Shown: positions 1,428 through 62,537 of the stretch, piece after piece | Layout of the letters: each line of letters starts with the position of its first letter | How positions within the stretch are numbered: the first letter of the stretch is position 1 | Source of the DNA: Parcubacteria group bacterium Gr01-1014_8 | Lineage (GTDB): Bacteria > Patescibacteriota > Minisyncoccia > Phycocordibacterales > UBA2100 | Direction: 5' to 3' | Assembly: GCA_007376385.1 (NCBI GenBank) | Contig: VMGC01000005.1 | Span: 96,001-160,000, forward strand | Length of the DNA: 64,000 nucleotides | Made by a program: the position numbers and the translations under genes | The notes under the pieces: model-generated | The model's input: only the letters and a program-made list of their open reading frames with translations | Database searches by the model: none | Told to the model about the DNA's origin: nothing

Positions 1428-2471
1428 ATGCTTGTTGATGATGTCACCATAAAACTCTCTGGGGGCAACGGCGGTCCGGGCATCGTCGGCTTCAATCGCA
1501 CTAAAGGAAACACGGGTCCGACAGGCGGTAACGGGGGCCCTGGCGGCGATGTCATTCTTGAAGGCATTTCGGATATCAGCGCGCTTCTTCAATTCAGATT
1601 TAACAAAGATTTCAAAGGCGAAGATGGCAAGCAAGGCACAACGCGTCTGCGCGACGGCACGCGCGGTGAGGATTTGATATTGAAAATTCCGACGGGAACG
1701 GTCATCACGAATCTCGACACAGGCTGGACGCATGAACTGACGAAGGAGGGCGAGCACGTTATGGTCGCAAAAGGCGGCTATCGCGGCCGTGGAAATTTCC
1801 ACTTCCGCGCATCGACGAATACGACGCCGATGGAAGCCGAGACGGGCGAACTCGGAGAGAGTTTTACATTCCGCCTTGAACTCAAGATGATCGCCGACGT
1901 GGGTCTTATCGGTATTCCGAACGCAGGCAAATCGTCGCTTCTCAACGAACTGACCGGCGCGCACTCGAAGATAGGGAATTACGCGTTCACGACACTCGAG
2001 CCGCACCTCGGCGCATACTACGGGCTCATTCTTGCAGACGTGCCGGGTCTTATCGAAGGTTCGTCGGAAGGCAGGGGCTTGGGAGACAGATTCTTGCGCC
2101 ACATCGAACGCACGCGCGTCCTCTTTCATTTAGTGTCTGCGGAATCAGACGATGTCGTACGCGATTACAAAATAGTGCGGCAGGAATTGCAGGCCTATAA
2201 TCCTGCGCTCACAAAAAAAGAGGAGTATGTGTTTTTGACGAAGGTTGACCTCGTGGATGGTAAGGACGCGGAAGCAAAATTGAGGTTATTGAAGAAGATG
2301 AACAAGAATGCGCTCGCGCTCTCGGTCATCGAAGATAAGCGGATGAGGGCGGTGAAAGACATTCTCAACACGTTCCTAAAAGAAAAGAAGGTGGCTCCCC
2401 CTGGGACCACACTTGGATTTTCTGAAGCGGGAGTACCCGCTAAGAAAATCTCGGCGGTCGATGACAAATGA
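1428..2471 (+). CDS. obg: GTPase Obg/CgtA
   Basis: N-terminal Gly-rich Obg fold (GGNGGPGIVGF...GGNGGPGGDVIL). G domain with GIPNAGKSSL (G1) and DVPGLIEGS (G3). The C-terminal ~18 codons are encoded by repeat family B (see findings). Confidence 0.92.
   Translation: MLVDDVTIKLSGGNGGPGIVGFNRTKGNTGPTGGNGGPGGDVILEGISDISALLQFRFNKDFKGEDGKQGTTRLRDGTRGEDLILKIPTGTVITNLDTGWTHELTKEGEHVMVAKGGYRGRGNFHFRASTNTTPMEAETGELGESFTFRLELKMIADVGLIGIPNAGKSSLLNELTGAHSKIGNYAFTTLEPHLGAYYGLILADVPGLIEGSSEGRGLGDRFLRHIERTRVLFHLVSAESDDVVRDYKIVRQELQAYNPALTKKEEYVFLTKVDLVDGKDAEAKLRLLKKMNKNALALSVIEDKRMRAVKDILNTFLKEKKVAPPGTTLGFSEAGVPAKKISAVDDK
2404..2457 (+). repeat. Family B hairpin repeat, copy B1, embedded in the 3-prime end of the obg coding sequence
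   Basis: GGACCACACTTGGATTTTCTGAAGCGGGAGTACCCGCTAAGAAAATCTCGGCGG. Near-identical copies sit at 20463..20518 (same orientation) and 20936..20988 (reverse complement). Internal dyad GCGGG-agta-CCCGC. Confidence 0.8.
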
Positions 2472-3159
2472 ACCGACAGTGATTTTTGAGAACGACGATT
2501 TTCTCGTCATCAATAAACCGGCCGGGCTCATCGTGCACTCGGACGGAAGGACGATAGAGCCGTCGCTCGCCGACTGGCTCATCGCGCGCTCCCCCGCGCT
2601 ACAAGAGGTCGGCGAGCCATGGGTGTCGCCGCAAGGAGAAAAAATTGCGTGCCCTGGTCTTGTGCATCGTTTGGATAGAACAACATCGGGTGTGATGGTT
2701 GTGGCGAAAACACAGGCGATGTGGAAATACCTGCGCGCAGAATTTAAAGAGCGGCGTGTCGAAAAGAAATATCACGCATTTGTCTACAGTCATGTGGAGG
2801 GGAGTTCTGGTCGGATTGTTTCTGAAATCATGAGGTCGTCTACGCCTCCTAAAAAATGGTATGCACGGCCATGCGACGAAAGCCACAAGCGAGCAGCCAT
2901 AACGGATTGGACGCTTTTGAAAAAGCTCGAAGATAACGGCGAGCTCATTTCGTATCTCGAAGTTCAGCCTCGTACCGGCCGCACGCATCAGATACGCGTG
3001 CATCTTGCATCTATCGGGTATCCTATAGTCGCGGACCATCTGTACTCCGACAAGAAGCCACTTTTAGGATTCACGCGCCCGGCGCTTCATGCACACAGTA
3101 TTTCATTCATGCTGCCGTCAGTAGAAAACCGGGAATTTATTTGCGAGCGTTGCGAGTGA
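2461..3159 (+). CDS. RluA-family 23S rRNA/tRNA pseudouridine synthase
   Basis: Catalytic motif HRLDRTTSGVMVVAKT and RTGRTHQIRVHLA. The chosen start, MTNEPTVIFENDDFLVINKPAGL, overlaps the obg stop by 11 nt. The last 6 codons (ICERCE*) are encoded by repeat C1. Confidence 0.88.
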   Translation: MTNEPTVIFENDDFLVINKPAGLIVHSDGRTIEPSLADWLIARSPALQEVGEPWVSPQGEKIACPGLVHRLDRTTSGVMVVAKTQAMWKYLRAEFKERRVEKKYHAFVYSHVEGSSGRIVSEIMRSSTPPKKWYARPCDESHKRAAITDWTLLKKLEDNGELISYLEVQPRTGRTHQIRVHLASIGYPIVADHLYSDKKPLLGFTRPALHAHSISFMLPSVENREFICERCE

Positions 3160-3220
3160 AATGCAAAAGAGCACTTTTGTATTTCCGAGTCGAGGAGCAA
3201 ACACAGGTTCAATACCTCGG
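3137..3220 (+). repeat. Family C dyad-symmetric repeat, copy C1
   Basis: TTTGCGAGCGTTGCGAGTGAAATGCAAAAG-agca-CTTTTGTATTTCCGAGTCGAGGAGC...GGTTCAATACCTCGG. Homologous to 27115..27203 and, in reverse complement, to 61726..61813. Confidence 0.75.
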
Positions 3221-3275
3221 AGCTTGCTCCGAAGAACCTTTATAGCGCCACCACCGAAGGATTTTCGCTGATGTT

Positions 3276-3785
3276 TCAGTTTCTCTTTATTGTTTGGTCG
3301 ATCATTTGTTTTGCTGTCCGCAGTGCTGTTTCTGCTTTCAGCGCAAGTCCAGGGTCATCGATAGTGCCGATTGCGGCATTTGCCGCGTCCCGCAAACTAG
3401 AAATATATGGCACTACAGCCTCCCTTTCTTTATCCGCATTTTGCTCCCTGAATGGGACAAGTCCATTCTCGATCAAGAGGGGGATGACGACCGATATTAG
3501 GTGCGCCCGAACCGTGTCAGGTGACACTTCTTTGTCCCACCGGTCGTATATTATCTTTCGCAATTCGTTTTCAGACACATCGTGCACCTCGTCAAAAAAA
3601 TCCCTATCTTTTCCCGTTAGTTCCATCTTGTTGGCCAATTCGGCGCCTATGTCTGAAATGAGCGAGCATATTCCTGTGAGCATGTCTTCGACGTCATCGC
3701 CTTCGGTTATTTCTGCGACGTCGTTCTTTATCTTGTCGTCGAACGGAAACACGCCGACGTTTCTAATTCCTCCTCTGTCCGTCAT
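3276..3785 (-). CDS. hypothetical acidic cytoplasmic protein
   Basis: 169-aa ORF with balanced composition. The overlapping + strand ORF 3271..3897 is Ser-rich low-complexity and was judged an antisense artefact. No family recognised. Confidence 0.5.
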   Translation of the reverse strand: MTDRGGIRNVGVFPFDDKIKNDVAEITEGDDVEDMLTGICSLISDIGAELANKMELTGKDRDFFDEVHDVSENELRKIIYDRWDKEVSPDTVRAHLISVVIPLLIENGLVPFREQNADKEREAVVPYISSLRDAANAAIGTIDDPGLALKAETALRTAKQMIDQTIKRN

Positions 3786-3811: not shown

Positions 3812-4264
3812 ATGATGGATCCGGATATCTCACCACAGGCAGAACCGGAAGCGACACCCGAAATCTCTGCAGAGGTCGCACCTGCGCCGGGTTCTGAACA
3901 AGTAATTCAAGAGACACAGTCTGCCCAGTCAGGGCCGGCGGAACCGGCTCCGCCGCCGCCGGCATCTGCATCTCCCGCACCCGAGACTCCTCTATCCGCC
4001 TCACTTCCGCTCATGCTCGGGCCTGCTCTCGCTATCAAAAACCTCGCACAGCAGGCGCTCGAAAAATTGCAATTCCGCAAAAAGGGCCGCCTCGACAAAA
4101 TCATCGAGCTTGCGAGAAGGAAGGGGAGCATCGTCAATAATGATGTGGAGATGCTCCTCAAAGTCTCGGACGCGACAGCCAGCCGCTATCTTGCAGAGCT
4201 CGTCAAACAGGGCACATTACGGCAAAAGGGTGTCCGCGCAGGCACGACCTACGAACCAGCGTGA
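3812..4264 (+). CDS. hypothetical protein with a Pro/Ala/Glu-rich N-terminus and a C-terminal winged-helix-like DNA-binding segment
   Basis: C-terminus ...VSDATASRYLAELVKQGTLRQKG resembles an HTH recognition helix. The N-terminus is low-complexity (PAPGSEQ...APPPPASASPAPETP). Confidence 0.5.
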   Translation: MMDPDISPQAEPEATPEISAEVAPAPGSEQVIQETQSAQSGPAEPAPPPPASASPAPETPLSASLPLMLGPALAIKNLAQQALEKLQFRKKGRLDKIIELARRKGSIVNNDVEMLLKVSDATASRYLAELVKQGTLRQKGVRAGTTYEPA

Positions 4265-4367
4265 GCGACCAATTTCTCTTCGCGATATTCCGCGTTAGAG
4301 AAATGTGAGTGCCCGTGCGGTGCCAAGCCTTGGCTCAAACGGCGCCATTTGAGCCAAACGCCGGAAG

Positions 4368-6379: not shown

Positions 6380-7237
6380 ATGGATATGAAAACAGCACTT
6401 ATTGTTAGTATTGCACTATTCACGCTATCAATTGGGGGAATCGCGCAAGCGCAATCGTCCACAGCGTTGGAAGTTAGTGCGCAGGTGTCGGCAACGACGT
6501 CGGACAATGGCAAGGGCAAGGGCGCTGAAATGAGCGCGGGGGCTTCGGCAAACGCATCCGCGACAGGGACGGCTCACAAAGCAGACCCTGAAGAAAAAAA
6601 GGGCGAGGAAGGGCGTGGCGATGAGATGCGCTCGGCGACAGCAACGGCAATGACAGCGGAAAAAGGCGGCAGGGAAGACGACGATGACAGCGGACAGGAA
6701 AAAGATAAAGATGATTCTCCCGATCCCATGAAGGGCGGCGTGCATGTCGCTGCGGGCGATGTTGATGGTCTCACCGAAGACGAGAAGGAGGCATTCCTCG
6801 CACGCGTTAAAACGCACGCACAGGTAAAATCAGGTCAGGACTTGGAGAACTTTGCGAAGGGAATCCTCATTAAAGATGACAACGTCGAAGAACTTTCCTC
6901 GGACGAAGACAGCGTCGAGGTGCGCTACCGCGTGCCGGCGAAATTCCTCGGGCTTTTCGAGACGACGCTTCCTATCGAAGTAGTGGCAGAAAAAGCGCAG
7001 GGCGAGCTTGGCGGTGGCGTAAAAGTGAAATTCCCGTGGTTCCGCTTCCTCTTTGGCATTCCAGACGATGTCTCGCAGTCGTCGCTTGAAACGTCGGTTG
7101 GTGCAGCGGTCATCGGCGATTTGGATCGCGATGGCGTTCTTGATGTCGCCCTCACTGCGCGCCTCTACAACGCGATATCCAACATCCTCAAGACCAAGCA
7201 CGATACTGCAAAGAATTCGATTGGGAACATCCGCTAG
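6380..7237 (+). CDS. secreted hypothetical protein with an acidic low-complexity region
   Basis: Signal peptide MKTALIVSIALFTLSIGGIAQAQ. Asp/Glu/Lys-rich stretch (GREDDDDSGQEKDKDDSPD). Confidence 0.5.
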   Translation: MDMKTALIVSIALFTLSIGGIAQAQSSTALEVSAQVSATTSDNGKGKGAEMSAGASANASATGTAHKADPEEKKGEEGRGDEMRSATATAMTAEKGGREDDDDSGQEKDKDDSPDPMKGGVHVAAGDVDGLTEDEKEAFLARVKTHAQVKSGQDLENFAKGILIKDDNVEELSSDEDSVEVRYRVPAKFLGLFETTLPIEVVAEKAQGELGGGVKVKFPWFRFLFGIPDDVSQSSLETSVGAAVIGDLDRDGVLDVALTARLYNAISNILKTKHDTAKNSIGNIR

Positions 7238-7291: not shown

Positions 7292-7804
7292 ATGAGCGGA
7301 CCAGATGACATGCAAGGAGCCGTGACGCGCCGAAATGTGCTGAAAGCGGCTGCAGCGCTTGGCGCGATGGCAGCAGCACCGCTGCTGTTTGCCACAATCG
7401 CCGACGCGCGCGATTGCGAAGGGAAGCGGTGCGGGAATTGGCATATGAAGCCTTCTCCCGAACGTCGCGAAAATCCGGAGGAGGTCAAAAAGTTCAAAGA
7501 GGACATGAATACCGTTGTGAGCGAATACAAGAATATCCAGGAACTGCTAAACGACATACTGACGCATCACAAACTTGACCCAAAGCGCTTCACAATAACG
7601 ATGTCGCCGCCTGGTCGCGCAATTGAGATAGCTATATCGGAAAACGGCAAATCCGTCGGCAGTTTCGGCTTGAGTACCATGCAGCTAAGGAGCGCATACG
7701 GCGTTGATTCCGGTATCCCACCTGAACAACTCATCAACAAGAAAGGATTTCAGACGCTATTTTTCAAGCATTTACAGGAGCTCCGTCTCATGGAGAGTAA
7801 ATAG
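7292..7804 (+). CDS. hypothetical exported protein with a twin-arginine (Tat) signal
   Basis: TRRNVLKAAAALGAMAAAPLLFATIADA matches the S/T-RRxFLK Tat consensus followed by a hydrophobic h-region. Confidence 0.55.
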   Translation: MSGPDDMQGAVTRRNVLKAAAALGAMAAAPLLFATIADARDCEGKRCGNWHMKPSPERRENPEEVKKFKEDMNTVVSEYKNIQELLNDILTHHKLDPKRFTITMSPPGRAIEIAISENGKSVGSFGLSTMQLRSAYGVDSGIPPEQLINKKGFQTLFFKHLQELRLMESK

Positions 7805-11321: not shown

Positions 11322-12648
11322 TGCTCTGCAAAAGTGCACGGCCTATTTCTTCAATGATTCCGACGACAAGTGCGTTACCCATGAAGAACGCTCGTTTTAC
11401 GTCGGAAATGTCGTCATATGCGGTATGGCGAGCAGGGAATTGGCATAATAACTCTAACTCTGTTGGGGTAAGTCGGCGGTATTTTCCGGACTTTGTTTTT
11501 ACAACATGCTTGAATCGCGAGGGTGCGGGCCCTCCCTCTCCTGTAATTATCGTGCGGGAAGGTTTATCCAAAGCATCCGGAAAAGTCATTGGACCCTCTG
11601 CGTAGTGATAAGTGAATCCATCTGTCCCATGGCGCTCTTCCTTTTTAGCACCCTTGAGATATTTCCACTCTTTTAGTGAGCCGTTGATAAAATATTCTTC
11701 GGCGACTTTGTGTTCCGGAAGTAGAATATCACCGAGAGTAATGAAAGGGCCACCGTATTTTGGAGTTACGCGAGCGGTTGTGATCCGACCGTCACTCATG
11801 ACCCCAGCATTCGCAAAATCTATATCGTCCGGGAACAATTGTTCAAAGTCTCTCGTTATTCTGACGGGATCATCAGCGACATCGTGTCTCGCGAATCTTG
11901 AAATTTCATCTTCGACTGCGAGTCGTTGCGCGAAAACTCCTTCTTTTGTCAGCCAATTGATCGCGTCAGTCGAACGTAGCGCATTTGCAATACCGGTTCC
12001 ATTCTTGAACGCGAGAATAAAGATCCGGCGCCTGCGCTGTGGTTTTCCGTAATCAGCTGCATTGATAACGCGCCATTCGACGACATATCCGAGGTTTGCG
12101 AGCGAAGCGAGCATGATCGCAAAATCACGACCGCGGGCAGATGCTGGGGACTTTAATAATCGGTCAACGTTCTCTAGGAACACATAGGGAGCAGAGTCCT
12201 TGTGTCCTTTTTCTTGAAGAATGCGATAGATCTGCCACCAGAGAACGCCTTTCTTTCCCTGGAGTCCCGCAGCTTGGCTCAACGTTCGTGCAACCGAATA
12301 ATCCTGACAAGGAAATCCTCCGACAAGAACATGATGGTCCGGGATGTCACCTGTTGCGACGGTCGCGATATCTTGATTACTGTGTCCTTTGCTGCCAAAA
12401 CGTGCCCGGTACACCTCGGATGCGTGCTGGCGTTTCGTTGATGGCTCCCACTGATTACTCCAGATGGTCTCGAATTTCAGACCTGCTCTCGCCGCTTCCT
12501 TTTTTGATGCTTGGTCGAGTCCGAGACGAAATCCTCCCACCCCTGCGAACAATTCAATGACCTTAAGTGGCACCGCTTGTCGATCGTCTTTTTTGAGCGT
12601 ATGTTTGGCTAGTTTCCCCATAGCTAAATCGTACCAAGGAATATCCAT
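11242..12648 (-). CDS. dcm: DNA (cytosine-5)-methyltransferase (Dcm-like, type II m5C MTase)
   Basis: Motif I ELFAGVGGFRLGL, motif IV GGFPCQDYS, motif VI VFLENVDRLL, motif VIII QRRRRIFILAF. The partner of the adjacent vsr. Confidence 0.9.
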   Translation of the reverse strand: MDIPWYDLAMGKLAKHTLKKDDRQAVPLKVIELFAGVGGFRLGLDQASKKEAARAGLKFETIWSNQWEPSTKRQHASEVYRARFGSKGHSNQDIATVATGDIPDHHVLVGGFPCQDYSVARTLSQAAGLQGKKGVLWWQIYRILQEKGHKDSAPYVFLENVDRLLKSPASARGRDFAIMLASLANLGYVVEWRVINAADYGKPQRRRRIFILAFKNGTGIANALRSTDAINWLTKEGVFAQRLAVEDEISRFARHDVADDPVRITRDFEQLFPDDIDFANAGVMSDGRITTARVTPKYGGPFITLGDILLPEHKVAEEYFINGSLKEWKYLKGAKKEERHGTDGFTYHYAEGPMTFPDALDKPSRTIITGEGGPAPSRFKHVVKTKSGKYRRLTPTELELLCQFPARHTAYDDISDVKRAFFMGNALVVGIIEEIGRALLQSIKRHEEPSRRVQRFDPHLSLFGAPTR

Positions 12649-19554: not shown

Positions 19555-19569
19555 AACACAGAAAGCAAA

Positions 19570-19599
19570 AAGCGCCCCGCCTAAAGAGGCGGGGCGCTT
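19570..19599. terminator. bidirectional rho-independent terminator hairpin (AAGCGCCCCGCC-taaaga-GGCGGGGCGCTT)
   Basis: 12-bp perfect GC-rich stem. The minus-strand side has a U-tract (UUUUGCUUUCU). It sits between the convergent genes 19027..19554 (+) and 19612..20283 (-). Confidence 0.8.
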
Positions 19600-19611
19600 C
19601 GTTTGAGATGA

Positions 19612-20283
19612 TTAAAGACCGATCTCTACTTCTGTCGAACCTTCCATCTTCGTTTTACTTCCTGCTTCTGCACTCGAACCTCCTTCTGCATGCGCCGATG
19701 TCTCGCTTTTGACGGTGGCCGGACCGACGTGAATGTCAGCTGTTCCGTCGCCGTTCACGTCGCCCGCTGTGACATTGATGTCAGCGGTACCATCGCCGCT
19801 GACGTCCCCTGCGGCGACACCTGCGCGAGCCCGGATGTTCTGGATGATGTTCTTGAGGCTTGTGTGGGCTTCTGCTGAAGCACTGCCTTTCACGTTCGTT
19901 TCGACATTGCTGAATGCGTTGATAGCAGTGTTGATGCGCGTAAGGACCGATACCGCAGCTTCCGTCTTGCCGGACGTGCTAAGTTCGTTGGCTGCTTGAA
20001 GCGCGGCTTCTGCATGCGACGAAAATTCTGCTCCCAATTCTGCAGCAACGTCAGCATCCAATTCGCCGCGGGCGCTAAGTTCTGCGGCTTCTTGCAAGCG
20101 GCGTTCGGTAACGCGTGCTTGCCAGTTCGCTTCTGCTTCGCTCGAAACCGTAAGTGCAGCACGGACGTTTTCGTTCACCGACGTTTTCATGCCGTAGAGG
20201 ACGTCTCCCGGGACAGCATTTTCGGCGGCAAAAGAGGCTCCGCCTCCAAGTGCCAAGATCACTACTAGAATGATTGCAATCAT
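19612..20283 (-). CDS. secreted/membrane-anchored Ala/Glu-rich protein (DUF5667-like)
   Basis: N-terminal TM helix followed by AVPGDVLYGMK, typical of DUF5667 N-termini as I recall them. The rest is Ala/Glu/Ser-rich repetitive sequence (GDVSGDGTADINVTAGDVNGDGTADIHV). Confidence 0.5.
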   Translation of the reverse strand: MIAIILVVILALGGGASFAAENAVPGDVLYGMKTSVNENVRAALTVSSEAEANWQARVTERRLQEAAELSARGELDADVAAELGAEFSSHAEAALQAANELSTSGKTEAAVSVLTRINTAINAFSNVETNVKGSASAEAHTSLKNIIQNIRARAGVAAGDVSGDGTADINVTAGDVNGDGTADIHVGPATVKSETSAHAEGGSSAEAGSKTKMEGSTEVEIGL

Positions 20284-20401
20284 ATTGACTAATTAACTTG
20301 TGTTACGTGTAATGACCGCCACGCGGGCGGACGAATATTGAGACGATATACGTCATTAAGTCTTACACGGTCTGTCAAGCCTATTCGGAGGGGCAAAAAG
20401 A

Positions 20402-20431
20402 AAGCGCCCCGCCTCTTTAGGCGGGGCGCTT
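20402..20431. terminator. rho-independent terminator hairpin; inverted copy of the 19570 hairpin
   Basis: AAGCGCCCCGCC-tcttta-GGCGGGGCGCTT followed by CUUUCUU on + and UUUCUUUUUG on -. Downstream of the minus-strand csp. Confidence 0.8.
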
Positions 20432-20462
20432 CTTTCTTGACCGGCACGTGGCTCGCTTACGC

Positions 20463-20518
20463 GGCCACACTTGGATTTTCTAAAGCCGGCATACGCCCGC
20501 TTTAGAAGATCTCGGCGT
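20463..20518 (+). repeat. Family B hairpin repeat, copy B2 (abuts the csp stop codon)
   Basis: GGCCACACTTGGATTTTCTAAAGCCGGCATACGCCCGCTTTAGAAGATCTCGGCG. Inner dyad TCTAAAGC...GCTTTAGA. Confidence 0.8.
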
Positions 20519-20736
20519 TATGCCATCGGCTGAGCAACTGCTCGGCTGACCTGAGTCGCGTTCGGACCTTTCGGAGAGTCCACGACTTCAAACGTCAATT
20601 TGTCACCTTCTCGAAGCTCGTCGAATGTAACGCCGACAAGCTCTTTGGAGTGGAAGAAGACATCCTTCTCCTGCCCCTCGATCTTGATGAACCCAAATCC
20701 TTTATCAGTGATTCGGGCGATTGTTCCTGTTTGCAT
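20518..20736 (-). CDS. cspA: cold-shock protein (CspA family)
   Basis: MQTGTIARITDKGFGFIKIEGQEKDVFFHSKEL carries the RNP1 (KGFGFI) and RNP2 (VFFHS) motifs. The ORF-track N-terminal extension (MRACFYQFYFHFI) was rejected as non-coding. Confidence 0.9.
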   Translation of the reverse strand: MQTGTIARITDKGFGFIKIEGQEKDVFFHSKELVGVTFDELREGDKLTFEVVDSPKGPNATQVSRAVAQPMA

Positions 20737-20935
20737 AATGAAATGAAAATAGAATTGGTAAAAACATGCTCGCAACGCGCTATAGAGTTTAATCCAAGTG
20801 GTCGCAGGTAAGTATCAAAAGCAGTGTGCTGGGAGTTGTAGGTCGATCCCTCTTCTCTGGATCAGCCCTGAAATTGATGCCCGAAGGGTATCACACGCTT
20901 TCTCGCTTGTCCAGTCCTAAAAGAGGGGTATACTG

Positions 20936-20988
20936 CGCCGAGATTTTCTTAGCGGGTACGCCCGCTTTAGAAAATCCAAGTGTGGTCG
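20936..20988 (-). repeat. Family B hairpin repeat, copy B3 (reverse complement), ~200 nt upstream of the csp start
   Basis: The reverse complement reads CGCGACCACACTTGGATTTTCTAAAGCGGGCGTACCCGCTAAGAAAATCTCGGCG, near-identical to B1. Confidence 0.8.
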
Positions 20989-21010
20989 CGAAGCGAGCCA
21001 CCGCCCTGTT

Positions 21011-21484
21011 ATGAAGATAAAGATGAACAAGACAGTACTCATTGCGGGCTCCCTCGCCATTCTGGCTATTGTTGCGCTCTCCGCCTACTTTTTACTATCC
21101 GGCGGGCGCACAGGAGAAGGAGTCCTAGGCGGTTTTGTTTCGGGGCCAGGCCCCGATGAGAGACCGAGATCTATGTTGCTGACCATATGGAGGAGCACGG
21201 GCAGCATCAAGTACACCCGAGAATTCAAGGCAAACGGCAGTCTTATTGATTCATACGACAGCGCTCCGGCTGCTCCGCTCGGAGGCAGATGGATGATAGT
21301 CAATCCACTCCTCGAAACAGCGCTTCCCGTACCAGCAGAGAGCCTCGACTCGACCGTAATAAAGATAATGTTTGATACAGGTGACGTGTTTTATTTTGGT
21401 GTTGATGCTCTATCTGAAACAGAACTGAGGCTAAAGAACTTAAGCGGCAATGGGAACACATTGCGCTACAGCAAGATGAAGTAA
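21011..21484 (+). CDS. membrane-anchored hypothetical protein
   Basis: N-terminal TM helix (VLIAGSLAILAIVALSAYFLL) followed by a soluble domain. No family recognised. Confidence 0.45.
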   Translation: MKIKMNKTVLIAGSLAILAIVALSAYFLLSGGRTGEGVLGGFVSGPGPDERPRSMLLTIWRSTGSIKYTREFKANGSLIDSYDSAPAAPLGGRWMIVNPLLETALPVPAESLDSTVIKIMFDTGDVFYFGVDALSETELRLKNLSGNGNTLRYSKMK

Positions 21485-22597: not shown

Positions 22598-22637
22598 GCA
22601 TACCTTAGTGGTGCCGACCGGCACCACTAAGGTATGC
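22598..22637. repeat. Family A palindromic element, copy A1
   Basis: GCATACCTTAGTGGTGCCGACCGGCACCACTAAGGTATGC is a perfect 40-nt palindrome. It lies just upstream of the Rpf-like gene. Confidence 0.8.
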
Positions 22638-22696
22638 GTTCTTTGCGGGGATATCTTTCTTGTTTGGGGCATCGTACGCCTGCTACTGTTACTGGG

Positions 22697-26421: not shown

Positions 26422-26451
26422 TCAAGAGTCTCTGCATAGAGCTCAAATCCA

Positions 26452-26491
26452 AAATACCATAATGGTGCCGGTCGGCACCATTATGGTATTT
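26452..26491. repeat. Family A palindromic element, copy A2; likely bidirectional terminator after ppsA
   Basis: AAATACCATAATGGTGCCGGTCGGCACCATTATGGTATTT is a perfect 40-nt palindrome, followed by CGTTTTTC. Confidence 0.8.
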
Positions 26492-26512
26492 CGTTTTTCA
26501 TGGTGAGAAGCG

Positions 26513-27114: not shown

Positions 27115-27203
27115 CTTTATTGGCGAGCGTTGCGAGCGAAGCGAAAATGTATTCATTTTCATTTTCGAGCCGAGGAGCCAACATAGGGTCGAATACCCCG
27201 CGG
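27115..27203 (+). repeat. Family C dyad-symmetric repeat, copy C2
   Basis: CTTTATTGGCGAGCGTTGCGAGCGAAGCGAAAATG-tattc-ATTTTCATTTTCGAGCCGAGGAGCCAACATAGGGTCGAATACCCCGCGG. Intergenic, between two minus-strand genes. Confidence 0.8.
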
Positions 27204-50475: not shown

Positions 50476-50617
50476 ATGAATAGTATAGACGATGATTCCA
50501 AAATAATCTTACGCACTAGCGTGATGCGATAATCGTACTCCGAACATCACAAAAAGACTGACTGTGTGGGTTGGCGTTGTCGCGCTCATACTGCTGGATC
50601 GTCACTTTATCTTGCGA

Positions 50618-50692
50618 GGATAGCGAGAGAAATGCGAGTGCTTGCACTCGCATTTCCGAGCGACGCAGCAAGCAAAGGTTTGAAACCTTTCA
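50618..50692 (-). repeat. Family C-prime dyad-symmetric repeat, copy 1 (overlaps the stop codon of 50690..51226)
   Basis: CTTGCGAGGATAGCGAGAGAAATGCGAGTGC-ttg-CACTCGCATTTCCGAGCGACGCAGCAAGCAAAGGTTTGAAACCTTTCA. Perfect 13-bp inner hairpin. Confidence 0.8.
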
Positions 50693-51226: not shown

Positions 51227-51237
51227 ATACTTATTTT

Positions 51238-51316
51238 TTGTCTTGCGAGGATAGCGAGTGAAGCGAAAGCACGCTTTCGCTTTCGAGCGTCGCAGCAAGT
51301 AAAGGTTTACCTTTCA
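51238..51316 (-). repeat. Family C-prime dyad-symmetric repeat, copy 2 (overlaps the stop codon of the XRE HTH gene)
   Basis: CTTGCGAGGATAGCGAGTGAAGCGAAAGC-acg-CTTTCGCTTTCGAGCGTCGCAGCAAGTAAAGGTTTACCTTTCA. Confidence 0.8.
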
Positions 51317-52704: not shown

Positions 52705-52740
52705 CTTCACGATTGTTTAAGACTTTTGAAAATGCTAGGT

Positions 52741-52870
52741 TCTTGCGGTGATGTTGACCATCCATTCGATACCAAATTTTTCGGTGAGCATGCCGAACGT
52801 GTCACCCCGCGGTAGTTGAGGATGGGAGCCTGACTTCACCAATCCCGTCACCGACGCACAATCGGCTCAA
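52741..52870 (-). pseudogene. 3-prime remnant of a VOC/PhnB-like gene (paralog of 55595..56023)
   Basis: Minus-strand translation gives ...GDTFGMLTEKFGIEWMVNITAR*, aligning with the C-terminus ...GSYFGMFRDKYGIEWMVEFPAAK* of the intact gene. Upstream similarity decays quickly. Confidence 0.5.
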
Positions 52871-53719: not shown

Positions 53720-53789
53720 GAAGAAAAGTATATCACCCCTACCGCCACACGAACGGCTGGCGTTTTCCTGCGCGACGAGCTCTAAATTA

Positions 53790-53860
53790 CGACTTTTTTG
53801 CGGTGATGTTGACCATCCGTTTCGTTCCGAATTTGTCGGTGAGCATGCCGAACGTGTCAC
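53790..53860 (-). pseudogene. second 3-prime remnant of a VOC/PhnB-like gene
   Basis: Minus-strand translation gives GDTFGMLTDKFGTKRMVNITAK, about 80% nucleotide identity to the 52741 remnant. Confidence 0.45.
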
Positions 53861-53932
53861 CCGCCGCGACTTATCCAAAGGGACGACAGGTGCGATGCCT
53901 GACGAGAGCTTGTGCTATAGTGTGGCCATCAT

Positions 53933-55444: not shown

Positions 55445-55594
55445 GCTCTGATTGTATCAGAAGTTCGAACGTCAACTGCCATCCAAAAAAGAATGGTTTT
55501 GTTAAGAGACAAAATCACGTGCTCCTCTGTGTCTCCAATCTTCGAACCTTCTTTACTGCCAATAGAGTGTTTGTACCTCTATAAGCCTATTAAG

Positions 55595-56023
55595 TTATTT
55601 AGCGGCTGGAAACTCAACCATCCACTCGATACCATATTTGTCTCGAAACATGCCGAAATAGGAACCCCAAGGGCTATTAGCCATAGGCATCTCTACAGTG
55701 CCACCTGCCGAAAGCCCGTTGAATATTAGTTCTGCTTCTTCCTTACTCTCTGTACTGACCAAAATTTTACTTCGATTTTCGTTTTCATTCACTTTACCCA
55801 TAAACGCAGGTACGTCATTGGCCATCAACACGTTACTTTTACCGATGGGTAAAGTGATGAGCATAATTTTCTCTGCCTCGGTGTCTGACACTGGAAATTC
55901 TGGACTCGCTAGATCTTTGAAACGAGTAATCTTTGTAAAATCACCCCCAAATATTGATTTATAAAATGTAAACGCTTCTTCAGCATTGCCGTTGAAGTTA
56001 ATCCAAGGATTTATCGTTGTCAC
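55595..56023 (-). CDS. VOC-family PhnB-like protein
   Basis: INPWINFNGNAEEAFTFYKSIFGG...ITLPIGKS...GTVEMPMANSPWGSYFGMFRDKYGIEWMV is the canonical PhnB/3-demethylubiquinone-methyltransferase-like VOC fold. Confidence 0.75.
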   Translation of the reverse strand: MTTINPWINFNGNAEEAFTFYKSIFGGDFTKITRFKDLASPEFPVSDTEAEKIMLITLPIGKSNVLMANDVPAFMGKVNENENRSKILVSTESKEEAELIFNGLSAGGTVEMPMANSPWGSYFGMFRDKYGIEWMVEFPAAK

Positions 56024-56548: not shown

Positions 56549-56563
56549 ATTCAGTCTGCAGCG

Positions 56564-56695
56564 TTAGGCAAGAATTCCGATGGGGAAATGGGCGCCGGCC
56601 ATCACGAGAATCGTGATGAAGCTCCAGAGCGACACTTTTTTCTTGCCGGTACTCCGGCTTAGAAAAATGGAAGTACTCTTGTGGTGCTTCGACAT
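56564..56695 (-). CDS. 43-aa small membrane peptide
   Basis: Hand-translated: MSKHHKSTSIFLSRSTGKKKVSLWSFITILVMAGAHFPIGILA. One TM helix. Below the ORF-track cut-off. Confidence 0.25.
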   Translation of the reverse strand: MSKHHKSTSIFLSRSTGKKKVSLWSFITILVMAGAHFPIGILA

Positions 56696-56829
56696 CATAA
56701 ATGTTTTTGTTTGCGATCGTTAAATTAAGGTAGCAGACCAAGGTCTAACTTTCACAGAGGGTGAAAAACTCCTGGAGTACAGCCCTAACGCAGGCATGGT
56801 ACCACATAAGCAGTAACTAGTCAAGGTAC

Positions 56830-59516: not shown

Positions 59517-59852
59517 ATGACGAGTGAGATAGCGAACTATCTCGACAGCAGGCTTAGTTCGCTGGAGAAGCAGATGGGCTCAGATACGAGTGGCGCGCGG
59601 TGTGAAGTAGAAATATCTCGCGCTGCAGGGAAGAAGCACAGCAGCGATTATATGTGGACTGCCGAAGTGAGAATAATCATTCTTGGTAAAAAAGCAGCGT
59701 ACGCGAAGAATTCCGCAGCAAGCGTGAATGCGGCCATCGATGATGTTAAGGAAGAGATAGAGCGGCAGCTGCGAAAAAGCAAAGGAAAGAGCACGAAAGA
59801 GTCGAGGCGAAAAGGAAAAAGATTCAAGGACGCAATTCGGGGTGGCAAATAA
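59517..59852 (+). CDS. hpf: ribosome hibernation-promoting factor (HPF/RaiA family, short form)
   Basis: ...YLDSRLSSLEKQMGSDTSGARCEVEISRAAG...MWTAEVRIIILGKKAAYAKNSAASVNAAIDDVKEEIERQLRKSKGK follows the HPF beta-alpha-beta-beta-beta-alpha pattern (cf. E. coli ...[37 protein letters not shown]). Start trimmed. Confidence 0.6.
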   Translation: MTSEIANYLDSRLSSLEKQMGSDTSGARCEVEISRAAGKKHSSDYMWTAEVRIIILGKKAAYAKNSAASVNAAIDDVKEEIERQLRKSKGKSTKESRRKGKRFKDAIRGGK

Positions 59853-59862
59853 TCCGTATACC

Positions 59863-59900
59863 GTATACCTTAATGGTGCCGGTCGGCACCCTTAAGGTAC
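59863..59900. repeat. Family A palindromic element, copy A3 (imperfect), after hpf
   Basis: GTATACCTTAATGGTGCCGGTCGGCACCCTTAAGGTAC. Confidence 0.75.
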
Positions 59901-60037
59901 GCGCGTTCCATTGATGCTTTGATGCTATCGATAGGGAAAGAGTTTCTCATTTTAATTGGCAGCAATGCCTGAGAAGCTCCCCTTACCGGAAATCGGCTCC
60001 GGTATGCGATTGACTATACATCCGTGTTAGAAAAGAA

Positions 60038-61725: not shown

Positions 61726-61813
61726 CCGCGGGGTATTCGACCCTATGTTGGTTCCTCGGCTCGGAAATGAACATGAGTACACGTTCATTTCACTCGCAAC
61801 GCTCGCCAATAAA
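61726..61813 (-). repeat. Family C dyad-symmetric repeat, copy C3 (reverse complement)
   Basis: The reverse complement reads TTTATTGGCGAGCGTTGCGAGTGAAATGAAC-gtgtactcat-GTTCATTTCCGAGCCGAGGAACCAACATAGGGTCGAATACCCCGCGG. It lies in the large intergenic region upstream of def. Confidence 0.8.
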
Positions 61814-61977: not shown

Positions 61978-62253
61978 ATGAAGCACATTGGGGCACATTT
62001 AAAGACGCGCAAGCATATTCTTCGCGAGACGGAGCGGGGGGAATTGATGAAATTCTTTTGCGAGCGCCTGAATTCGACGCGCCGGTTTGACGGTCTGCCT
62101 CGTATAACGATGGCCCGCATGGGGAAAATACTTGAAGGCATTCCGACAAAGGACCTCTATTATCTAAAGCGGGTTTGTAATGATGCTGGCAATTTCTCCA
62201 AAAAATTCTGGTGGGAGGTAAATCCAAAAAAGCATCCTGACGCTAAGATCTGA
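61978..62253 (+). CDS. hypothetical basic protein
   Basis: 91-aa ORF followed by palindrome A4. No family recognised. Confidence 0.4.
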   Translation: MKHIGAHLKTRKHILRETERGELMKFFCERLNSTRRFDGLPRITMARMGKILEGIPTKDLYYLKRVCNDAGNFSKKFWWEVNPKKHPDAKI

Positions 62254-62262
62254 CCTCGATGC

Positions 62263-62306
62263 CTAAATACCTTAGTAGTGCCGGTCGGCACTACTAAGGT
62301 ATTTAG
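62263..62306. repeat. Family A palindromic element, copy A4
   Basis: CTAAATACCTTAGTAGTGCCGGTCGGCACTACTAAGGTATTTAG is a perfect 44-nt palindrome. Confidence 0.8.
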
Positions 62307-62537
62307 TGATGCGGGGAGGGGGATGCACGAAAGTAGCCGGGAGCAAAGAGCAGGGAGGAAAAGCGCTCTTCACGTCACCGGCTACCAGCCTGCGCAGCCT
62401 TCTTAGGGCGCGCAGTAACGTTGCTCGAACCTGGAGCTCAAGCAACGCGTTATCCATAGGCACAATACGTTTGTGTCCAAAGCGAGTCAACCATTTGCGG
62501 GAATGCCTTTCAAAGATACAATGCCACTCCAACCTCT

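Follow-up and report, generated by a model that had tools for sequence, protein, structure and literature searches.

Double-hairpin repeats in obg and beside csp of a Parcubacteria genome as members of a probably mobile, non-autonomous DNA family of Patescibacteria

Rickettsia palindromic elements (RPE) are small palindromic repeats of a reduced-genome host, found in frame within unrelated and often essential genes, to which they add a conserved peptide; non-coding copies exist as well, and no transposase is known for these elements (PMC10969869). The same features are shared by the repeat family examined in the present study, designated B, which we followed up from a stretch of 64,000 nucleotides (nt) of the metagenome-assembled genome (MAG) 'Parcubacteria group bacterium Gr01-1014_8' (contig VMGC01000005.1, positions 96,001 to 160,000; hereafter the window). 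One copy in the window, B1, lies within the GTPase gene obg, and two others, B2 and B3, lie on either side of the cold-shock gene csp. Compared by description, B differs from RPE in its length (63-70 nt as opposed to ~100-150), its covarying two-hairpin architecture, its defined target (CTCGGCG), its occurrence in tandem arrays, in a group I intron and at the flanks of transfer RNA (tRNA) genes, and its distribution among many divergent Patescibacteria rather than within a single genus.

REP/REPIN-RAYT and IS200/IS605-derived elements likewise resemble B in being hairpin-based, strand-defined and devoid of terminal inverted repeats, and Y1_Tnp genes are present in B-bearing genomes. Insertion of IS200/IS605 elements takes place 3' of a short specific sequence and leaves no classical duplication; B displays target behaviour of this type, as judged from empty and filled sites in MurD genes and from the composition of its flanks, with no cognate enzyme assigned. 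In contrast to REP/REPIN-RAYT systems, B is not confined to extragenic DNA, its two hairpins (P1 and P2) are unlike each other, and the Y1 genes encountered are flanked by other hairpins. Membership of the REP/REPIN-RAYT class was rejected, as the RAYT gene is not flanked by B and copies occur in proteins and in a 23S ribosomal RNA (rRNA) intron. Also rejected was membership of the MITE class (miniature inverted-repeat transposable elements), B having no terminal inverted repeats, no arbitrary target duplication and no ends shared with an autonomous insertion sequence in the ~1 Mb searched. Correia/nemis and ERIC repeats are transcribed together with their neighbours, and their stems can serve as RNase targets and change how stable the mRNA is (PMC10969869). 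Unlike B, they are bounded by terminal inverted repeats and by target duplications of TA or a similar sequence. The mitochondrial double-hairpin elements (DHE) and repetitive hairpin-forming elements (RHE) of fungi and sponges are mobile-looking double hairpins which, like B, are situated in intergenic DNA, variable parts of rRNA genes, introns and occasionally protein genes, and which stay in transcripts without being removed; unlike the bacterial B they are organellar and lineage-specific in sequence, and the text consulted reports no defined target motif for them (PMC2800124).

A literature search retrieved no description of the B core sequence and no report linking Patescibacteria to REP, MITE or RPE-type repeats, while a 2026 paper on Patescibacterial tRNA introns leaves repeats and hairpins unmentioned; the family is apparently undescribed. 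On the evidence presented below, we consider it likely that B is a non-autonomous mobile DNA repeat with a double hairpin, widespread in Patescibacteria and maintained as selfish DNA. The genomes of these organisms are among the smallest and most streamlined of bacteria, yet they are widely colonised by the element, which has entered essential genes (murD, secA, obg, comEC and one that is RNase J-like) as well as an rRNA intron and tRNA flanks. To our knowledge, the routine translation of selfish DNA as part of bacterial proteins has just one well-known precedent, in Rickettsia. Another, independent example, for which both structure and target motif are defined, would offer a tractable system for studying the movement of such elements and their tolerance by proteins.

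Structure and distribution of the B family

A 22-mer core of the repeat has three matches in the window at up to three mismatches, compared with none in 100 shuffled sequences, and repeat search, gap-free extension and blastn delimited three intact copies sharing 67-70 nt at 87-90% identity. B1 occupies positions 2390-2456 of the + strand (P1 hairpin 2391-2410, P2 hairpin 2412-2454, 3' CG 2455-2456; cmsearch 75.3 bits) and folds as RNA at -32.5 kcal/mol (z -3.8). B2, at 20448-20517 of the + strand (P1 20448-20468, P2 20470-20515; 57.5 bits), folds at -38.5 kcal/mol (z -6.7), has an unusually perfect P2 stem and contains the most stable hairpin of the three copies, while B3 lies on the - strand at 20936-21002 (P1 21001-20982, P2 20980-20938; 80.9 bits; z -3.8). 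Common to all three are GTGGCTC..ACCAC in P1 and a 6-bp P2b helix; P1 of B1 differs from that of B3 by compensatory changes (TCGC..GCGA vs TCCC..GGGA), and the double hairpin forms on both strands of every copy (z -3.3 to -6.7). An earlier note on this DNA had recognised three repeat copies with internal dyads; the copies are borne out by the 22-mer matches, blastn and the covariance model described below, and the dyads by folding. The unit it proposed, of 55 nt with one hairpin, has to be replaced by one of 67-70 nt with two, the hairpin overlooked being the 5' P1 (GTGGCTC...ACCAC), ahead of the hairpin described there.

With filters off, the covariance model detected exactly these three intact copies in the window together with two decayed ones. 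The first (56628-56696, - strand; 29.4 bits, E 6e-5) retains the P2 hairpin TTTTTCT..AGAAAAA and has lost P1; the second, an intergenic partial relative (4274-4302, - strand; 24.6 bits, E 8e-4), comprises a P2-type hairpin with an AATA-type loop and a compensatory P2a pairing, ATTTCTCT/AGAGAAAT. The copy at 56628-56696 also overlaps the start of a 44-codon open reading frame (ORF) with a hydrophobic tail (56560-56700, - strand; MMSKHHKSTSIFLSRSTGKKKVSLWSFITILVMAGAHFPIGILA), which may encode a small membrane protein with an element-derived N-terminus or may be a chance ORF.

Beyond the window, genomes were scanned, one per species, with the pattern CACTTGGATTTTCT-N12-36-ATCTCGG, and loci spanning 2-14 kb each were fetched (given below as L and a number). 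The scan returned 50 loci, ~42 of them genuine, and every genuine one derived from Patescibacteria MAGs, including Kaiserbacteria, Wolfebacteria, Paceibacterota and MAGs labelled Saccharibacteria. At least 120 further loci, mostly from groundwater, were recovered with the same pattern from metagenome contigs, and the element is present in well over 150 public Patescibacteria contigs. A scan of viral contigs with this pattern gave one chance match and no B element.

From an alignment of 47 copies (MAFFT, RNAalifold) we obtained two adjacent hairpins in an element ordered G, P1, A, P2a, P2b, CG, which measures 63-70 nt across the family and shows compensatory changes at 12 of its 24 pairs. P1 is made up of 8 pairs, 7 with compensatory changes, and both its stem sequence and its loop of 2-8 nt are free. 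P2a, in which CUUGGAUUUUCU pairs with AGAAAAUCUCGG, is conserved in sequence, and P2b consists of 5-6 pairs, all of them covarying, and carries an RNUA loop (AGUA in 33 of 84 copies). A covariance model built from the 47-copy set was then applied to the independent metagenome loci, aligning 96 copies, 84 of them distinct. Among these 84, 98.6% of cells are paired, as against 39-47% when the partner is slid by 1-3 columns, and double changes occur at 13 of 24 pairs (228 cells). Compensatory changes within P2a are seen in copies found by the model only (GGACUUUCU/AGAAAGUC, GGAUUUACU/AGUAAAUC and, at window positions 4274-4302, AUUUCUCU/AGAGAAAU), and covariation is strong in all three helices of the element. 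In the variable stems, G-U pairs (14) and A-C pairs (13) are equally rare, and the counts therefore single out no RNA strand. In the variable parts, copies from the same genome resemble one another more closely than those from different genomes do (0.70 vs 0.59).

Target motif and insertion sites

Comparison of MurD homologues provided filled and empty versions of one insertion site: 118 of 120 sequences read ..NVTFHLGGH.., and the remaining two carry an insert of 21-22 residues. The DNA of the empty site is TTTCAC-CTCGGCG-GCCAC, or has CTCGGTG, and that of the filled site is CAC-CTCGGCG-[GCAGC...AAGAAAAT-CTCGGCG]-G/A, with AAAAT before the final CTCGGCG; the element starts right after the pre-existing CTCGGCG and itself ends in CTCGGCG. 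Both sites occupied in formyltransferase genes are also empty in other genomes. In 94 copies lying outside introns and tandem arrays, the 7 nt ahead of P1 agree with CTCGGCG at no fewer than 4 of 7 positions in 34% of the 5' flanks, compared with a background of 8%; four flanks match at 7/7 (0.02% expected), and G is the base at -1 in 74%. In front of another eleven copies stand 10 or more of the 12 bases of AAAATCTCGGCG. The 5' end of the element, (G)GCAGCTCGC, and its 3' end, AAAATCTCGGCG, are not reverse complements, and terminal inverted repeats are thus lacking. The repeat flanking the element is a fixed CTCGGCG, the same as the element end and 4-15 nt long, and not an arbitrary target duplication of fixed length. 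The identity of the target with the element's own 3' end explains the head-to-tail arrays, which have a period of 63-69 nt.

In-frame copies were identified in at least nine unrelated protein families. The hosts confirmed by Pfam are MurD (at the same site in two genomes), SecA (immediately ahead of the DEAD-type motif), ComEC, a beta-CASP metallo-beta-lactamase RNase (a single copy in each of four contigs, two in tandem in another), an HI0933-like flavoprotein, an RNase_T/ExoX-like exonuclease (with three copies in tandem) and formyltransferase (two different occupied sites); in addition, the C-terminus of RodA/FtsW runs into P1 in ~11 loci. All coding copies are sense-oriented and read in the frame ..T-x-LGFS.., with predicted peptides that include TTLGFSEAGVPAK and ATALGFSK. 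This frame is open in 21 of 47 copies, and the two others are open in 34 and 42; given that the frame used is the one less often open, its choice is non-random, which is likely due to selection for a polar, Gly/Ser/Thr-rich peptide. Intergenic copies show 11 sense and 9 antisense orientations with respect to co-directional neighbours, and convergent gaps are favoured over divergent gaps by 15 to 5. The element explains odd tails and inserts in annotated MAG proteins, as well as assembly breaks such as a contig ending at B3, and the covariance model could be used by annotators for masking it.

In the window itself, B1 lies inside obg (1428-2471, + strand; 347 residues, 100% identical to the Obg of the MAG), where it codes for about 22 of the last 26 residues (VAPPGTTLGFSEAGVPAKKISA), the final VDDK* being derived from the flank. 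The location within obg had been noted earlier, with a contribution put too low, at the last ~18 residues. The closest Obg homologues (84-70% identity) are 318-323 residues long and end in ..KEK*, ..KKVA* or similar, and the continuation PPGTTLGFSEAGVPAKKISAVDDK is unique to the window protein among the homologues compared. Inspection of the C-termini of 18 homologues showed the tail in none, and lengths together with a query coverage of 90-93% indicate its absence from nearly all of the 119 listed; the alignment of Obg C-termini proposed in the earlier note thus identifies the extension as specific to this genome. In the AlphaFold model, residues 322-347 have a predicted local distance difference test score (pLDDT) below 50, the last helix stops at residue 321, and the tail (pLDDT 27-35) has no secondary structure; the 24-residue tail is accordingly predicted to be disordered. 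Downstream, the RluA-family pseudouridine synthase gene rluA (2461-3159, + strand; gene call in L178; PF00849, 108.9 bits) begins, according to gene callers, at an ATG at 2461 that overlaps the obg stop codon and lies 4 nt past B1. It does not start within B1, as had been supposed; the only start codon inside the copy is an alternative TTG at 2413. A break in synteny with L053, L052 and L054 falls exactly at B1 (window 2461-3785): in these relatives obg is followed by a helix-turn-helix (HTH) gene or by other genes, and in the window rluA and a minus-strand ORF of 169 residues are inserted between obg and the HTH gene (3812-4264).

The element was also found inside 23S rRNA genes. In L038, the match to the 23S model is broken by 355 nt in the loop ..GACCGU[ ]GUGAGACAG.., which we take to be the region used by the I-CreI intron. 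This insert is a group I intron scoring 40 bits, under the Rfam cutoff of 50, apparently because of the element occupying its P8 (68 nt vs 34 in the model), and B-carrying 23S introns may be missed by standard annotation. The flanks that recur, CCGAGGGAAG and CCCGUAGAGACU, belong to the intron core, and at least 23 distinct P8 copies were counted. The B-carrying intron of L038 (6405-6760) recurs at equivalent positions in L001, L007, L034 and other loci, and LAGLIDADG ORFs are present in the rRNA introns of 8 loci. Further copies abut tRNA genes, either on the same strand directly before the 5' end (tRNA-Ala in L003, tRNA-Leu in L012) or, in several loci with tRNA-Ser, against the 3' end and on the opposite strand.

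Mobility, RNA function and the csp locus

The absence of terminal inverted repeats, together with two subterminal hairpins, a target identical to the 3' end and growth in tandem, points to recognition of a folded single strand, as in IS200/IS605 or REP-RAYT systems, or of a short core, as in core-site recombination. B may thus have spread as a folded single strand that is transposed or undergoes site-specific recombination, with an HUH/Y1-type transposase, or a recombinase acting on the 7-bp core, as the putative mobiliser. The element inserts immediately 3' of a (CTC)GGCG-like site, and copies appear to survive where the harm is small, namely in the peripheral P8 loop of the 23S intron, beside tRNA genes, in convergent gaps and in one protein frame. 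On this reading, B1 is an insertion at the 3' end of obg, through which the old stop codon was lost and a disordered tail of 24 residues gained; B2 inserted exactly behind the csp stop codon, and B3 between csp and the divergent gene. We favour selfish DNA because the element has a DNA target, enters coding sequence, shows no orientation preference relative to transcription outside coding sequence, matches no Rfam family and has no excess of G-U pairs; the reading is further based on csp not being a recurrent neighbour. The decayed copies in the window were likewise counted in favour of a mobile family.

Candidates for the mobilising enzyme were found in two contexts. An IS200-like Y1_Tnp transposase gene (L178:1047-1547; PF01797, 119 bits) ends 27 nt before window position 1, between genes for an ammonium transporter and an AI-2E transporter, and is not at this position in the relatives L054 and L055. 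It is flanked by perfect hairpins of its own, e.g. TGCTAAAGCCGTCC-GGCA-GGACGGCTTTAGCA; the ends of this IS200-like element have no similarity to B, a tblastn search with its TnpA found no copy in 175 other loci, and nothing links the gene to B. The second, a RAYT-like Y1_Tnp gene in L123 (6770-7474), is located 375 nt from a triple B array and is flanked not by B but by doublets of the palindrome TGTGCAAGCCAGGCCTGCACA (6696-6751 and 7501-7555), an arrangement that is classic for REPIN-RAYT, here in a Kaiserbacteria MAG. Clustering of ~1000 ORFs near B yielded context genes only (rRNA-operon neighbour, RodA/FtsW, LAGLIDADG) in addition to the RAYT-like protein, which is near B in 3 independent loci and has its own palindromes. 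A profile of doubled 24-residue B peptides, a query too short for the purpose, produced 13 weak matches to short spurious ORFs among 5.8 billion proteins.

Several observations weigh against selfish mobile DNA. A connection between the element and any transposase or recombinase could not be established, both Y1 genes being flanked by different hairpins, and no autonomous, split or cargo-carrying form appeared in 180 loci (~1 Mb) with a crude regular expression that missed even a nested copy in L037. The left flanks of B1 and B2 match CTCGGCG at 2/7 positions only. The pattern scans of genomes and metagenomes demanded 21 exact bases, which makes those positions invariant by construction and under-samples decayed copies, and the gene contexts and orientation counts derive from crude ORF calls. 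Furthermore, very divergent lineages have a conserved core sequence in common, and pairing has been retained at orthologous sites (intron P8, RodA 3' end); either observation may reflect a function or, alternatively, selection on transposition-competent copies.

The intron copies allow for a different route of spread, in which a master copy in P8 of a homing 23S group I intron carries B between Patescibacteria and a conserved protein recognises the folded RNA or single-stranded DNA. We put this forward tentatively and regard it as rather doubtful. If true, the family would represent either a new transposition or recombination system targeting CTCGGCG, or an RNA domain reused in rRNA introns, tRNAs and mRNAs.

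It also seems unlikely to us that B acts as a structured RNA module with a function of its own, such as a site at which RNase III or a conserved Patescibacterial protein binds or processes the RNA; the module would serve as an extension of P8 in the 23S intron and be reused in tRNA precursors and untranslated regions (UTRs), its spread being secondary. Such a role would fit the strong covariation of all helices alongside invariant unpaired positions, P2a and RNUA loop, the retention of the element, with compensatory changes, at sites that are orthologous (the RodA 3' end and no fewer than 23 copies in intron P8) and the exact abutment of element ends and tRNA ends; there is a precedent in transcribed MITEs such as Correia, which are RNase III substrates (PMC10969869). 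However, RNA function does not easily account for in-frame insertions in nine or more unrelated proteins, nor for a DNA target that is specific in sequence. Outside coding sequence there is no bias in transcription strand, B2 being antisense in the csp mRNA, and G-U pairs are not in excess over A-C. Nor was any Rfam family matched by the element when the window was searched, in which only a tRNA passes the gathering score.

The csp gene, encoding a cold-shock domain protein of 72 residues (20518-20736, - strand; identified from its translation and PF00313), is followed on the same strand by B2 and an intrinsic terminator-like hairpin (20401-20432, - strand; 14 pairs, then a T run). The earlier note had located B2 at the csp stop codon and B3 ~200 nt upstream of the start, positions that can now be refined: the last base of B2 (20517) abuts the stop codon, and the upstream distance from the csp ATG to B3 is 199 nt. 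Being located between stop codon and terminator, B2 is transcribed with csp as part of its 3' UTR, with the family's orientation reversed to antisense. B3 separates csp from a divergent gene and stands 8 nt upstream of where the + strand ORF 21011-21484 has its ATG; this ORF is faced by a promoter-like TTGTCC-16-TATACT (20907-20934, + strand) directly before B3.

The proposal that the pair constitutes a cis-regulatory csp RNA is not supported, and we consider it very improbable that B2 and B3 are csp-specific regulatory structures such as a UTR thermosensor or stability elements. In its favour, B2 sits between csp stop codon and terminator with the most stable hairpin of the three copies; a local side effect on csp mRNA stability is possible by analogy with Correia and ERIC elements. 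Among ~130 independent loci, however, a csp homologue adjoins the element in this genome only, the sole other case (L116) being 2.5 kb from the nearest copy, and the element is also found in obg, murD, secA and rRNA introns. B3 is 199 nt away, behind a promoter-like site facing the other way; B2 is antisense, and the family has no orientation bias in intergenic regions. Known csp leaders are unmatched, as Rfam searches of 20380-21060 at E up to 10 gave only terminator-driven matches and no cold-shock leader. For this window, the idea of a csp regulator is thereby removed: B2 and B3 appear to have been inserted independently of each other, the family being one that inserts everywhere, and it is by coincidence that they bracket csp. 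Also suggested had been 'a small composite mobile unit', of which the mobile type of the repeat stands and the carriage of csp between copies does not; although inverted copies 418 nt apart flank csp, such a unit is scarcely credible, given that the segment between B2 and B3 is unrepeated in the window or any fetched locus, that the one other contig with this csp is from the same strain, its assembly breaking at B3, and that B lacks terminal inverted repeats and inserts as a single unit of 63-70 nt.

Other repeats in the window and fetched loci

Several further repeats were identified in the window. Family A is a repeat of ~85 nt, TTTATTKGCGAGCGTTGCGAG...CCGAGCCGAGGAGC, present at 3136-3210, 27116-27203 and 50607-50681 on the + strand and at 61726-61813 on the - strand, with partial copies at 12090-12115 and 51237-51262, and compensatory changes distinguish the internal hairpins of different copies. 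For rluA, the last codons and the stop codon are provided by the copy at 3136, and the gene is thus situated between B1 and a copy of A. A third family consists of near-perfect palindromes of 36-41 nt, ATACCTTAGTGGTGCC-GNCC-GGCACCACTAAGGTAT, at 22598-22638, 26439-26498, 59850-59905 and 62252-62307, and looks REP-like. Two bidirectional terminator-like hairpins that are 90% identical, AAAGCGCCCCGCC-loop-GGCGGGGCGCTTT (19563-19604 and 20397-20438), bracket the minus-strand ORF 19612-20283. Three 79-nt direct repeats with 62-84% identity (52729-52807, 53784-53862 and 55589-55667) have the appearance of conserved 3' ends belonging to paralogous genes on the minus strand, not of a mobile repeat.

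Among the fetched loci, two convergent-tRNA spacers (L020:120-330 and L025:150-260, both - strand) hold repeated structured units (..TTTTTGGTGTGTACGGGGAG-loop-CGAGACCGTGCACC..) beside B copies, possibly representing another repeat family. Finally, in L037 (1140-1290, - strand) a B copy is split between CACTTG and GGATTTTCT by an unlike perfect hairpin of 57 nt (CCAATTTCACTTAGGCGG..CTGCCTTAGTGAAATGG); here another small palindromic element has inserted into B.

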